From Longimicrobiales bacterium (GTDB taxonomy: Bacteria; Gemmatimonadota; Gemmatimonadetes; Longimicrobiales; Gaopeijiaceae), in NCBI GenBank assembly GCA_965248195.1, contig CBDFIQ010000002.1:3008001-3072000 (forward strand): 64,000 nucleotides of DNA. The letters run 5' to 3'. This document shows, piece by piece, positions 19,720 through 32,413 of the stretch. Below the pieces are notes generated by a model that was not told the origin of the DNA, searched no databases, and saw only the letters and a list, made by a program, of their open reading frames with translations. Made by a program: the position numbers and the translations under genes. Each line of letters starts with the position of its first letter. Position 1 is the stretch's first letter.

Positions 19720-20050
19720 TCGGATTCCTCGTCGTCGGCTTCCGTGACGTTGTGCTCGACGGATGTGATCTCGATCGCGCCGCCGCCCTTGCCGAAGAGC
19801 TCGTGCGCGATCCTCGGCGGAGCCAGTTCTGGGATACGTCTCTCCGTCACCCTGAAGGCGAGGTTGGCGTCGCCTCCGTCAATGGCCGCATAGAGCGTCC
19901 GTTGGGAAACTTCGACGAGTCCTTTCAGCCATCGGTCACTCGCCTCATGGCACGCATCCGGCCACCAAGGCGATACCTCCCAACGCTGTAATGTGCGAAA
20001 GCCGATCCCGGCGCTTTTGGCGGCTTCTTTTTGGGTGAGTCCGGTAAGGC
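19716..20050 (-). pseudogene. Terminase small subunit-like HTH protein (module B), N-terminally truncated
   Basis: GLTQKEAAKSAGIGFRTLQRWE HTH and HELFGKGGGAIEI tail; stop overlaps the TerL start; no own start codon. Confidence 0.65.
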
Positions 20051-20659
20051 GTCCCACATCCAGTATGCGACGGGCCGAGCCCACTTGTCCGTCTCGACGC
20101 CCATGCGGATCTCGTTCGTACCCTTGCCCGCGGGCCTATTGAACTCCTCGTCGAGTTGGTCGGCGTCGAGAAGCTGGACGGCGAAACTGAAGTCGTTCCG
20201 GAAGCCGGGCAACATGCGCAGGATCCCCTCGCCGTCCATCGCCTCGGTCTGCAGCACGACCTCCGAGATCCCCTGCCACGACAACCGCCCATCCGCCGAG
20301 GAGGATCTCGGATCACCCCAACGACGCCACGCCTCTTCGATCTTCTTAGCCGCGCCCTCATCGAGTTCGCCGTCGAAACCGAGCGGCTGAGACTGAAGCC
20401 GAATCCCGTGCGGGCCGATGATGTTGTCGGCGAGCAGATCGACGAAGCGGGAGCAATGCGCCGTATTCCGGGCCATCTCGCGAGCTCGCTTCCGGAGCGT
20501 GCGAAGGTCGCCACGCACCTCTGCGTCCGCGCTCCGGATCGAGGCGAGGATCCAGTCTTCGGTGAGACGATTCTGCACCGCGCCGCGGAAGGATGTCCCC
20601 TTCGGGTGAGCCCGTGCACCGCGCATCCGCCGAGATGCCTCGCGCAGCGGGTTACCCAT
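20050..20659 (-). pseudogene. Lambda-family portal protein (module A), N-terminal about 200 aa only
   Basis: LRKRAREMARN, NIIG..GIRLQ, DGEG, QLLDADQL, IRMGVE.DKWARPVAYW; then runs into TerS-B sequence. Confidence 0.85.
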
Positions 20660-25959: not shown

Positions 25960-26358
25960 TTATTCTGGCTCCTGCTCAGTGGCCCAACTGCGCTCCGCTA
26001 TCTTCTGGCGAGCAATCAGATCACCCAACACGGGATTGATGCCCGCTTTCATCCACGCCAGGTTCGATACCTGGGGGGTGTAGACCATGATCACCATGCC
26101 GTTTTTTTCGGTCGCGTCCTCCTCCATGAGCCGGAGGGTTTCCCTCGCACAGAGCGCAGCTATCTTCTTGGGTGCCAATGCCTCAAAGGCGCCGGCAAAC
26201 GACCTTTCTATGATTCCGCGAGTAAATGCGGTGACTCTGCGCTTCGCGATGAACACAGGTGGCTCTTTGTTTTTTTGGCCCGGCGCGATGTAGAGATCCC
26301 CGTCGGTATCGCCGTTCCCTTGGAGGTAGACAACCAAATTGTCGGGAAGCCGCCTCAT
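25960..26358 (-). CDS. Hypothetical phage protein
   Basis: ATGA overlap with the methyltransferase stop; 132-aa ORF starting MRRLPDNLVVY. Confidence 0.55.
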   Translation of the reverse strand: MRRLPDNLVVYLQGNGDTDGDLYIAPGQKNKEPPVFIAKRRVTAFTRGIIERSFAGAFEALAPKKIAALCARETLRLMEEDATEKNGMVIMVYTPQVSNLAWMKAGINPVLGDLIARQKIAERSWATEQEPE

Positions 26359-27322
26359 GCCACCTCCTTCACGTCCCGGTAGGCCCGGATGAACGCCGCC
26401 GCGACTTGCGGGATGATCGCGTTGCCGTAGGCGCGCAGGCGTCCCACGCGGTTGGGTACCCCCATGAGCCAGCGGGAATGTGCCGGATTCAACGCGCCGC
26501 GCTTTCCCGTCCGCACAGTCCAAAAAACTTGATCCCTCAACCCAAAAGTGGCACATGGATCCTTCCTGTTCTCCGCCGCGCCATTGTGATCCGATGCCAC
26601 CGGGGTCTGCCAGCCCGCAAGCGCCGCCACGTCGTCCAGGTTCAGCATGTGCCCCTGCTCGCGCCGCTCCAATGCCTTCTCGGGATTCGTCTGCAACCCG
26701 CCCCGGCTCTCTGGTATCGCATTGGGCGTCGGCCAGCCCGCCAGCAGATCCGTCGTCTTCCGGCTGGAATCCGTGTTGCCCGCTGCGTTGTATCCCTTCT
26801 GCGCTGGCGTCCCGGCCATCGGCGTCGGCCACCCACCAAAGCCGCTGCCGGATGTGCGGTGCACCGACGCACGCAGCCGGCAGATCGGCAGCCCCGCAGG
26901 CATATCCCATGTGCTCCTAGATCAGCGCGTACTCCGGCGAGCCATTCACGTCCAAGGTTGCTCGCAACCTGCTCTCCAAAGACCGTTGCAGGTCGGCGCT
27001 CGGCGATGAGCCGGAAAAAAGCGGGCCACAGGTGTCTTCGATCGGCATGGCCACGTCGCTGTCCAGCGCTCGAAAGCGGCTGACAGGGAACGGAGCTGGT
27101 CCAGACGGGCCGCTCGTCGGGCCATCCGGCGAGGCGGAGCGCATGGCCCCAGCCGCCGATCCCGGCGAAGAAATGACACTGGGTGTAGCCTTCGAGTTCA
27201 TCCGGCGCGACCTCTTCGATGCTCCGCTCGTCCACGTCGCCGGGCGCGATCAGCCCCTCCGCGATCAGGTTCCGCAGCCACTCGGCGGCATACGGCTCGA
27301 TCTCGTTGTAGTAGGCTGTCAC
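26355..27322 (-). pseudogene. Phage C5 cytosine methyltransferase (permuted type), main frame, with two +1 insertions (26918 and about 26460)
   Basis: YYNEI, FFAGIGG (I), SVPCQPLS (IV), FGEQV (VI), PHIRQRLWWV (VIII), RLRAYGNAIIPQVA (X). Confidence 0.85.
26370..27201 (-). CDS. Overprinted +1-frame ORF within that methyltransferase gene (putative second subunit carrying TRD-like repeats and motif IX), broken by the same insertions
   Basis: GAGG 9 nt before the ATG; three GW(P/Q)TP repeats; LNPAHSRWLMG(YP) motif IX-like; end approximate. Confidence 0.65.
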
Positions 27323-27413: not shown

Positions 27414-27818
27414 TCATTCGACTATCCCCACGCCCTCCCAACCAAGAGGGCGCTTACCGTCGGCCCAAGCATTCATCCGCTCATGCCATTCTGCGTGACA
27501 CGGTGGGCATAGATCGCCAGTCGGCCAATCGTCTGCTTCCGCGCCGAACACCATCCGCGGCGCCCAGTGATGAAGTTCGACACCAGGCACGCCACAATGC
27601 TCGCATATCCCGCCGATGAAGTCCTTCTCGATTGGTATTTCGTCAAGACAACTATGTCCGTGCTCGCCCATCCACCTCAGCAATTCCGGGTCCGTTCTAG
27701 CAATATTGAGCGCCCCAGACCTCTCAGGGTCGGCCCGAATATGAAACCTGCCCGACCTCATCCGAACCCGGAAAAACCGCGTCTCAAGTTCGTCGTCCCA
27801 CAGGCCCGGCTTGATCAT
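27414..27818 (-). CDS. HNH-like endonuclease / zinc-finger protein
   Basis: CEHC...ELHH...LCPPCHAEWH. Confidence 0.65.
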   Translation of the reverse strand: MIKPGLWDDELETRFFRVRMRSGRFHIRADPERSGALNIARTDPELLRWMGEHGHSCLDEIPIEKDFIGGICEHCGVPGVELHHWAPRMVFGAEADDWPTGDLCPPCHAEWHERMNAWADGKRPLGWEGVGIVE

Positions 27819-30590: not shown

Positions 30591-31100
30591 TCACTCGCTC
30601 CCCTTCGGCAGCAACCATAGCGCACCGCTTCCGGGTTGCAGCGACATCCGACGCGCCACCAGCTCGGCCATCGTGACCACCTCGTCGGATCCATCGTCCC
30701 ACACTTCCACGTTCGCCATGAACGCGCCCGCGATGTCGAACAGGCCCGTCTCTACCGCGAGCAGTGCCTGCTCCACGAAGTCCCTCAGCTGACGCCACGC
30801 GATCCGGTAGGCTAGCTCCTCCTCGACGCACTTCTCGTATTCCAACCGATTGCGCCTCATCCGGTCGGAGTAGGGCTTCTTCTGTAGTATGATCTCGGCC
30901 ACTCTCTCCACTCGCGCCCCCAGGCGAACCGGCACCTCCCCGTGTTCGGTCTGGATCGCGAAGCGGACACCCCGCAGGCCGTGATTTCCCCATATCATCT
31001 CGAAGCGGGTCCCTCCATACGCTCTGACGAGCTGCATGATCTCCGCCGCGCTCTGCTCAGGCTCGACCGTGGTGGATTCGTACTTGATCGCCTGGCTCAT
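30591..31100 (-). CDS. Hypothetical phage protein
   Basis: ATGA-coupled to the methyltransferase; YESTTVEPEQSAAEI...AWRQLRDFVEQAL. Confidence 0.65.
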   Translation of the reverse strand: MSQAIKYESTTVEPEQSAAEIMQLVRAYGGTRFEMIWGNHGLRGVRFAIQTEHGEVPVRLGARVERVAEIILQKKPYSDRMRRNRLEYEKCVEEELAYRIAWRQLRDFVEQALLAVETGLFDIAGAFMANVEVWDDGSDEVVTMAELVARRMSLQPGSGALWLLPKGSE

Positions 31101-32413
31101 GGAAAGCGCCTCCCGATCCACTCGATCACGTGCACCGTCACCGCATTCCCCATCATCCTGTAGCGTGGGCCGTCCGCGAGTCCTTCCGTCCAACCGTCAG
31201 GGAAGCCTTGTAGTCGTTCGCATTCGGTTGGGGTCAGCCGGCGGGGTACGGCAGCCAGGACGGCACCAGCACCTACGCCAGCCCTACCACCATTGGGAGT
31301 GAGTAGGGCGTTCGCCTTGCCATCATCACCGAGTTCGGCCTGGGGTGTGCCGTTACGACCACGCACGGCCAGACTTTGCGGCTCCAGCGGAACCACGCCC
31401 GCTGTGTCACCCTGCCCGTTGAGCGTGTTCGCGTAGTCGGCCTCCTCCCATCTGACGATCGGCGTGTTGTCCGGCCCGTCTCCCGCGCCTTGGTCCCTAC
31501 CGCCTACGTGGAGCGTGTCAGCGACTAGATTGCCACCATGGCAATCCGAAGTCGGCCCCTTCTGCTCCCGCGCCGTGATCGGGTGAGCCACCCCGTGCTG
31601 GTGCCCAGCCTGGAGCGAGTACATGGGGTCATCGGGGTCACCAATGCCGATTCCCGCCCGTGGGTCATCGGTGCTCTTGCCTGTCCGTGCACCCACTTCT
31701 TGGAGCGGGTAGGCCCCGTGATTGTCTAGGTCGTTTCGTTGTCCGCCCTCGCCGCCAGCGCGCCCGCCAATGCTTCCGGCAACCTCTTTCTCCGTCGTTC
31801 GGCTCGGCGCAAAATCCCCGAACACGCCTTCGGGCTCAAGAAGTATTTCGGGGGGACAGAGTCCTCCAGCACGTCCGACAATGAACACACGACGGCGGCG
31901 CTGGGCCACTCCGAAAAACTGTGAGTCACACACGCGCCACGAGACACCGCGACTGGGTCCGATGGCGAACCCAGCGTTGCGCCACCCGCCTTCTGGGACG
32001 GCTGGCCGCCATCCTGTGAATCCCTCCAGGCATACGGCGAAATCTTCGCCTTGCTCGGAAGACAACAGACCAGGGACGTTCTCAAAGAGAACCCAACGGG
32101 GAGCGAGCTCATCAAGGATGCGTATTGCCTCGAGGAACAGCCCGGATTGGTCGTCAGCCAGGCCCTTACGCTTTCCAGCCACACTGAGACCCTGGCAAGG
32201 GCTTCCGAAGGTGATGCAGTCCACGGGAGAGAGATTTGCGACTCCGACATTCCTCACGTCCTCATATTTTGGGACATCCGGCCAATGGTGTCGAAGCACT
32301 TGGCGGCACTGCTTGTCGATTTCCACCTGCCATGCGCACGTCCAGCCCGCACGGTCCATTCCGAGGTCAAACCCGCCCACGCCAGAGAATAGCGAACCGT
32401 AGGTGGGCGTCAT
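31097..32413 (-). CDS. DNA (cytosine-5)-methyltransferase with long variable region
   Basis: SLFSGVGG (I), GSPCQGLS (IV), FENVPG (VI), QRRRRVFIVG (VIII), RRLTPTECERLQGFP (IX), GNAVTV (X). Confidence 0.93.
   Translation of the reverse strand: MTPTYGSLFSGVGGFDLGMDRAGWTCAWQVEIDKQCRQVLRHHWPDVPKYEDVRNVGVANLSPVDCITFGSPCQGLSVAGKRKGLADDQSGLFLEAIRILDELAPRWVLFENVPGLLSSEQGEDFAVCLEGFTGWRPAVPEGGWRNAGFAIGPSRGVSWRVCDSQFFGVAQRRRRVFIVGRAGGLCPPEILLEPEGVFGDFAPSRTTEKEVAGSIGGRAGGEGGQRNDLDNHGAYPLQEVGARTGKSTDDPRAGIGIGDPDDPMYSLQAGHQHGVAHPITAREQKGPTSDCHGGNLVADTLHVGGRDQGAGDGPDNTPIVRWEEADYANTLNGQGDTAGVVPLEPQSLAVRGRNGTPQAELGDDGKANALLTPNGGRAGVGAGAVLAAVPRRLTPTECERLQGFPDGWTEGLADGPRYRMMGNAVTVHVIEWIGRRFP
31726..32250 (-). 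CDS. Overprinted +1-frame ORF nested in the C5 methyltransferase (M.EcoHK31I beta-polypeptide-like)
   Basis: GAGGA 8 nt before the ATG; 174 aa; C-terminal CSLSDVLE..VPPKYFLSPKACSGILRRAERR.KRLPEAL. Confidence 0.65.
   Translation of the reverse strand: MSESQISLPWTASPSEALARVSVWLESVRAWLTTNPGCSSRQYASLMSSLPVGFSLRTSLVCCLPSKAKISPYAWRDSQDGGQPSQKAGGATLGSPSDPVAVSRGACVTHSFSEWPSAAVVCSLSDVLEDSVPPKYFLSPKACSGILRRAERRRKRLPEALAGALAARADNETT

Follow-up and report, generated by a model that had tools for sequence, protein, structure and literature searches.

Multispecific C5 DNA methyltransferases are known from Bacillus phages (M.SPR, M.phi3TI and M.rho11s); these are single chains with tested specificities whose modules lie between motifs VIII and IX. 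C5 methyltransferases made of two chains have also been described. M.EcoHK31I of E. coli (YGGCCR) consists of an alpha and a beta chain, with the beta gene nested in the alpha gene and carrying motif IX and with I-VIII and X in alpha (excerpts of PMC2836561 and PMC3404938), while in M.AquI (CYCGRG) the small chain holds part of the variable region together with motifs IX and X (excerpt of PMC3404938). Natural permuted enzymes, including M.BssHII, are all cut in the variable region and place IX-X first, according to the available part of PMC5944983. Lastly, prophage m5C enzymes of about 700 aa with relaxed specificity occur in Paracoccus and Sinorhizobium and are not described as two-chain in the accessible portions of PMC3925955, PMC5537653 and PMC6536676.

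Here, we analyze a prophage gene in a 64-kb stretch of DNA from a Longimicrobiales bacterium (the window, at its full length). An earlier note, made from the letters of this stretch, had proposed a two-subunit, dual-coding phage methyltransferase resembling M.EcoHK31I. This proposal is strongly supported at the level of the family, through stop avoidance in both frames, a conserved ATG with a Shine-Dalgarno element and the co-folding of the two chains, and it concerns a predicted complex. The gene in the window reads as a damaged member of a prophage gene family that is widespread and likely uses two frames for two methyltransferase chains.

Locus and reading frames

The methyltransferase locus, on the minus strand, belongs to the replication region of a lambda-like prophage whose host genome measures 4.86 Mb in two contigs; the same prophage region carries a primase-helicase (29476-27815) and a terminase (24649-22113). 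As written, the locus is divided into four ORF pieces, three of which match PHROG 363 'DNA methyltransferase' (phrog_363) in succession. These three make up the alpha gene (26355..27322, minus strand), which would encode the catalytic chain. Alpha opens at GTG 27322 and stops at 26355, and its reading frames are 27322-26919, 26917-26464 and 26458-26355: the protein continues in another frame past an extra base at 26918, and in a third frame past a run of C at 26459-26463.

The beta gene occupies the +1 frame of the same strand (26369..27201). It begins at ATG 27201, preceded by the Shine-Dalgarno-like sequence GAAGAGGTC (27209..27217; GAGG element, duplex -7.0 kcal/mol), has its natural stop at 26371-26369 and is broken here at 26918 and 26459-26463. 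The base at 26918 shifts alpha and creates a TAG that interrupts the beta ORF; downstream of this break lie three GW(P/Q)TP cassettes and LNPAHSRWLMG. The second extra base, within a run of five C, joins the beta cassettes and motif IX to motif X of alpha. The +1 ORF at ATG 27201, its ribosome-binding site, the three repeats and LNPAHSRWLMG had all been pointed out earlier, and each is present.

Comparison with close relatives accounts for both interruptions. A paralog in the same genome (L091, G000:C2:3344222-3345402; 95% nucleotide identity) lacks exactly the two extra bases, reads ALIWSTWDMPA, AHGVPNRVGRLRAYGNAI and WLMGYPTAW at these sites, and keeps both frames running to the end past them. 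The C run is four long in the alignments of L091, L092 and L084. The closest named relative, L187 from a Longimicrobiales MAG (95% nucleotide identity), also lacks the base at 26918, has an intact C-run site and has both frames intact; its alpha cluster comprises six full-length members, which are intact close relatives of 348 aa. The T at 26918 and one surplus C at 26459-26463 are thus the frame-breaking bases, as had been suspected. Rfam gave no match in the 64-kb window.

Several neighbouring genes are of separate interest. Immediately upstream, a 134-aa ORF (27414-27818, minus strand) weakly matches an HNH/zinc-finger family (PHROG E 0.006). A second C5 methyltransferase (31097-32413, minus strand; Pfam 7.9e-58) has the canonical motif order and divides the work differently: its TRD-like repeats, together with IX and X, all remain in the main frame. 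It contains a nested +1-frame ORF of 174 aa with a start signal (31726-32250, minus strand), which recurs in L114, L115 and L117 and is matched by 313 plasmid records; a 99%-identical paralog of this methyltransferase (G000:C2:569911-571203) has a different central repeat block. Next to it, an N4/N6-type amino-methyltransferase (phrog_67; 33610-32410, minus strand) is split between two frames near 33330-33250, so that the prophage carries three methyltransferase genes, two of them frameshifted.

Stop avoidance in the family

The decisive evidence for dual coding comes from family statistics and not from the window sequence alone. In the GC-rich window copy only 2.2 stops are expected by chance in the +1 frame (P of none 0.09), so this single sequence is no proof of dual coding. 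We therefore rely on two sets of homologs. In a scan of viral contigs, at least 596 of 600 candidate stretches were confirmed and 80 loci were kept, of which one without a motif IV match, four truncated and seven failing the motif X pattern (on inspection two nonsense, two frameshifted and three intact variants) were left out, leaving 68. From a further 80 genomic loci, five were left out and 75 used. L002 and L039 were omitted from the 50-gene set, and L015 and L033 also from alignments A1 and A2. Among GenBank phage records, 326 matched alpha and 228 matched beta.

The +1 frame was stop-free from codon 36 to just before motif X in 67 of the 68 complete viral alpha genes and open in 74 of 75 homologs of the independent set, drawn from bacterial genomes of many phyla. 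Under synonymous resampling of 52 viral representatives (<80% identity), 248 stops were expected in the +1 frame and one was observed (0/35, 0/45, 0/57 and 1/110 observed/expected by segment), so the frequent stops that would speak against the proposal are not seen. Control frames behaved as expected by chance, with 100 stops versus 97 expected in the +1 frame before codon 36 (that is, before the start of beta) and 577 versus 546 in the +2 frame; homologs are kin and hence not independent, and the control frames share the same kinship. Alpha likewise stays open across the cassettes although resampling of beta predicts 431 stops in 51 genes, in a set whose members were selected for an intact alpha (68 of 75 complete loci). 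Selection acts on both frames over a length of about 230-500 codons. Of 52 homologs, 49 have an ATG accompanied by a Shine-Dalgarno element within alpha codons 23-42 (20.4 expected), which indicates that beta has a conserved start of its own.

Alpha, the probable catalytic chain

The alpha pieces in the window carry motifs of C5 DNA methyltransferases (PF00145), in the likely order II-III-I-IV-VI-VIII-filler-X: motif I (FxGxG) as FFAGIGG at 27152..27172, identified by sequence and alignment; motif IV at 27077..27097, with the catalytic Pro-Cys (PCQP, 27088-27077); a GEQV variant of motif VI at 26966..26977, aligning to the ENV of M.HhaI; motif VIII as PHIRQRL at 26839..26859; and motif X as YGNAI at 26415..26429, which lies in the alpha frame in intact homologs. 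Across the intact homologs, the Pro-Cys of IV and the Gly-Asn of X are present in 122/122, the Glu of VI in 121/122 and the Arg-x-Arg of VIII in 116/122. The earlier note had listed motifs I, IV, VI, VIII and X without IX in the main frame; every coordinate agrees, and an IX-like pattern occurs in none of the 122 alphas, but the probable reordering of the first motifs had been overlooked.

Alpha aligns with M.HhaI over motifs IV-VIII (E 3e-16), and the model of a homolog (L001) matches the M.HhaI structure (Foldseek E 7e-7; VIA-align Z 13.2, rmsd 4.8, 171 aligned), starting only at motif I (model residue 42-43). The middle of alpha is unconserved and modelled at pLDDT <50. The model thus gives alpha the M.HhaI fold, with motif IX absent. 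By motifs and fold, the family is likely a PF00145-type C5 methyltransferase, for which formation of 5-methylcytosine is predicted.

The canonical one-chain order I-X is not followed, as IX is missing and the spacing from I to IV is short: 27 residues in 125/125 homologs versus 62-85 in 17 canonical enzymes. The 38 residues preceding motif I align best to canonical motifs II-III, as a weak profile match (P 0.02), and when this block is relocated to follow motif I, the profile score climbs from 56 to 78, a value exceeded by one of 60 shuffled inserts (mean 63.5). A narrow HMM of the first 38 residues found nothing significant in PDB or five canonical enzymes. On the basis of spacing, profile alignment and this reordering, the order in alpha is likely II-III-I-IV, with the N-terminal segment (27206..27322 in the window) as the candidate for motifs II-III moved ahead of I; we regard the identity of the moved block as moderately supported.

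Beta, cassettes and motif IX

Beta spans nearly all of alpha and measures 193-499 aa in 50 viral homologs. Its layout comprises a predicted disordered N-terminus (the first 70 residues), a confidently modelled helix and hairpin (77-123), the cassettes and then LNPxxSxWLMGxP, which aligns to canonical motif IX as a weak profile match (P 0.015). In the window, the motif IX equivalent, LNPAHSRWLMG, lies in the beta frame at 26460..26492. Three unusual forms were observed: L015 has an alpha of 545 aa and a beta of 499 aa, with a long insertion before the hairpin that is stop-free in both frames; L051 has a long alpha tail beyond the end of beta; and the short variants L029 and L045 have a beta with LPTPSGTSN and a divergent IX, with RNAI as motif X.

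The W-x-T-P cassettes vary in number (0-6 per gene) and order, and 6 of 122 betas have none under the pattern used. At 60% identity, 250 cassettes form 122 types, and the position of a common type differs between genes whose alpha cores are only 59% identical. In the window, cassette 1 (32 aa, 26739..26834) belongs to a type with 11 examples in the set, placed at positions 1, 2, 3, 4 and 6; cassette 2 (41 aa, 26616..26738) is without a partner at 60% identity among the 250; and cassette 3 with its linker (41 aa, 26493..26615) is common to L091 and L187. The window copy has three cassettes and L091 five (two with altered heads), with two types in common. Shuffling of cassettes is seen even between two prophages of the same genome.

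PHROG 1008 and 31772, both 'DNA methyltransferase', match the beta piece of the window, and the Atlas neighbours of beta are unnamed viral clusters throughout. The 'Mte8-like' label attached to beta occurs a single time, unexplained, in PMC5582158. Beta had no PDB sequence match at E 10 and no NCBIfam match, any given Pfam family matched at most 1 of 48 members, and its model matched no solved fold above Z 3.6. The cassettes had no sequence match to the variable regions of 17 canonical enzymes or to PDB, with the Bacillus phage enzymes outside this comparison. These missing database and fold matches do not show a new fold. The cassettes' position before IX and their shuffling, by analogy with the multispecific Bacillus phage enzymes, incline us to see them as specificity (target-recognition) modules. 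The description of the repeats as TRD-like, and of the enzyme as possibly multispecific, is thus based on position and shuffling and not on a sequence or fold match to a known TRD.

Predicted complex and mechanism

Co-folding of alpha and beta from L001 gave an ipSAE of 0.92, versus 0.01 for the best of three controls; in a benchmark, the mark used was reached by 116 of 157 solved pairs and 2 of 215 mismatched pairs. The runs had at least 82% of contacts in common, with partner pLDDT of at least 58. The IX region of beta is predicted to contact alpha at residues 12-21, 57, 151-153 and 249-260, and the hairpin to contact alpha residue 144; the predicted beta contacts include motifs VIII and X. 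Halves of a known fold can pass such a test by likeness to solved single-chain enzymes, and the score, partly expected on this ground, therefore supports binding of the two chains and does not show it. We regard a two-chain DNA cytosine-5 methyltransferase encoded by the two-frame gene as likely.

In the proposed mechanism, both chains would be translated from one mRNA. Alpha would bring the catalytic and cofactor-binding motifs, and beta would bind alpha, supply motif IX and likely recognize DNA through its exchangeable cassettes. Motif IX of beta would pack on the relocated motif II helix, the motif I helix and motif X of alpha, thereby completing the enzyme. Each W-x-T-P cassette would be one target-recognition module, and several cassettes would give several or relaxed targets. 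The middle of alpha would be a filler linking VIII to X that needs only to stay stop-free, which would permit cassette swaps in whole codons. The likely role would be protection of replicating phage DNA against host restriction.

State of the window copy

Beyond the two extra bases, codon 27097-27095 in motif IV reads Ser in the window and Gly in 122/122 intact homologs; contigs of runs X1-X3 and X5 also read Gly. The match of the portal gene (19925-20659, minus strand) to a 521-aa paralog ends at residue 206, and by such signs the prophage appears defective and mosaic. Terminase and portal pieces of another phage type (15287-19719, minus strand) follow the truncated portal. Five copies of the gene were found among 12 genomes of the genus searched, all broken in different ways, including a one-base deletion in L091 and large internal deletions in L092, L084 (G005) and L083 (G011). 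In L092 (G000:C1:397892-398552), both frames are open and the cassettes, IX and X are kept, and the catalytic motifs are gone.

Read-derived contigs and host genes bear on the quality of the assembly. In run X1, 594.7 of a contig depth of 606.4 omits the base at 26918, as does nearly all depth across X1-X3; the X1-X3 contigs, many of which belong to other copies, agree with the flanks at over 99%. With no more than about two thirds of the words present, these runs probably come from another strain; a near-identical X1-X3 prophage without the base fits an assembly error and a strain-specific lesion equally. Compared with G005, none of 168 host genes in 20 stretches of 20 kb was frameshifted, in a test that found 68 of 156 after one insertion was planted per 2 kb. 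Counting indels at the DNA level across distant homologs gave results too noisy for use. Phase variation at the C run is unlikely, as the run is only four long in relatives. Aligned to the window, two prophage regions of the assembly (G000 C1:839451-853237 and C2:3339219-3356648) gave the same statistics, which suggests a single prophage that was duplicated or assembled twice; of the two regions, the two-frame gene was detected in C2 alone.

Alternative explanations

The main alternative for the window copy keeps the same two-chain enzyme and supposes that the gene is intact in the cell, both extra bases being assembly errors among near-identical prophages. It draws on the presence of at least four related prophage regions in the two-contig assembly, the placement of one lesion inside a homopolymer, the near-complete omission of 26918 in X1-X3 and the existence of six intact 348-aa relatives. 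We consider it less likely than decay, as host genes show no frameshifts where planted insertions were often recovered, 26918 lies outside any homopolymer, the invariant Gly has changed as well, the portal is truncated, the nearby amino-methyltransferase is frameshifted too, the other four copies of the genus carry different lesions and X1-X3 are probably another strain. The window copy is therefore probably a truly decayed gene, rather than the product of a mere sequencing error, and this copy most likely no longer works. That the insertions are themselves functional, re-splitting the enzyme to give an M.AquI-beta-like chain (ORF 26903-26355), is hardly credible: the 182-aa ORF as written does join cassettes, IX and X, with a Shine-Dalgarno-like AGGAG that includes the 26918 base 9 nt before ATG 26903, but alpha is interrupted between VI and VIII, motif IX is missing its second half, the invariant Gly has been replaced and this layout occurs in neither close relative.

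Two further alternatives concern the family. A single polypeptide could arise if programmed frameshifts took translation from the alpha frame to the +1 frame past motif VIII and returned it ahead of motif X; this would yield the canonical VIII-TRD-IX-X in a single chain and would suit the frame swaps seen in the cassette region of L056 and L052. We judge this very improbable, because two shifts would be needed, some 130 codons of the +1 frame ahead of the cassettes are free of stops (0 versus 137 expected), this frame has its own start signal, and alpha stays open over the cassettes, which a shifted chain would not require. Improbable, too, is a beta that is a real protein but no methyltransferase subunit (for example, a regulator or a counter-defence protein), with alpha acting alone or with a host partner. 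The lack of Pfam, NCBIfam and PDB matches and the predicted disorder of the first 70 residues agree with such a role; against it, the one motif missing from alpha sits in beta, the co-fold separates from its controls with contacts to motifs VIII and X, and the PHROG families matching the beta piece are methyltransferases. The two-chain enzyme remains our preferred reading.

Implications

The layout is maintained across considerably more than a hundred related genes from viruses and bacteria and represents a long, conserved same-strand overlap in which control passes between frames along the gene. Recoding alpha in cloning would destroy beta. If the cassettes are specificity modules, the family would be a natural library of swappable 5mC writers (122 types among 250 cassettes), which would extend to such well-studied phages as epsilon15 and N15, and anti-restriction methylation of phages would be predictable from sequence. 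The window copy itself offers little functional gain, but makes cassette exchange and decay visible within one genome. As a wider and tentative proposal, which we would not yet favour, a very large phage family may combine a programmable two-frame methyltransferase, a II-III-I-IV chain and a recombining cassette array (>100 types, each having to be free of stops in both frames) with repeated loss of the gene in lysogens of this lineage because an active, broad 5mC writer is costly to the host; the five broken copies and the frameshifted amino-methyltransferase next door would be examples of such loss.

Comparison with known systems

Members of the same alpha family are already on record as single genes, including the epsilon15 cytosine methylase (AAO06104), N15 gp58 and PHROG 363, and the epsilon15 gene has an open +1 frame with cassettes and IX. 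No functional study of epsilon15, N15 gp58 or PHROG 363 members was found, and no description of two-frame coding in this phage family was found in the full-text literature searched, which included few subscription papers. One CDS is annotated in epsilon15, N15 and EBPR podovirus 2, only beta in Tunturi_1 and both in fTaEco01; the expectation that pipelines would miss the dual gene therefore applies often, but not always.

With the M.BssHII-type permutants, the family shares an altered motif order on the same fold; however, II-III probably stand before I while X is still last, which is not a circular permutation. The order II-III-I-IV is not among the natural C5 permutations surveyed in the available part of PMC5944983, a survey whose search required X before I. 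The likeness to M.SPR, M.phi3TI and M.rho11s consists of tandem exchangeable modules just before IX in orphan phage enzymes, but the modules here are putative, lie in a second frame and have no similarity found to known TRDs. M.AquI similarly has two polypeptides, with part of the variable region and motif IX in the small one; its small chain also holds motif X, which here is in alpha, and here the genes are nested in two frames.

The closest parallel is M.EcoHK31I, in which beta also lies wholly inside alpha in another frame, with IX in beta and X in alpha (the IX match here having P 0.015). The analogy drawn in the earlier note is upheld for a nested beta with its own start and motif IX and fails for the TRD, which in the published excerpts is in alpha; here, tandem cassettes lie in beta and the middle of alpha is an unconserved filler. 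Beta also spans nearly all of alpha here, the motif order is likely II-III-I-IV and the gene is an orphan in phage replication modules. Likened by layout rather than by the sequence of its chains, the two-frame gene appears to be a variant of the M.EcoHK31I kind.
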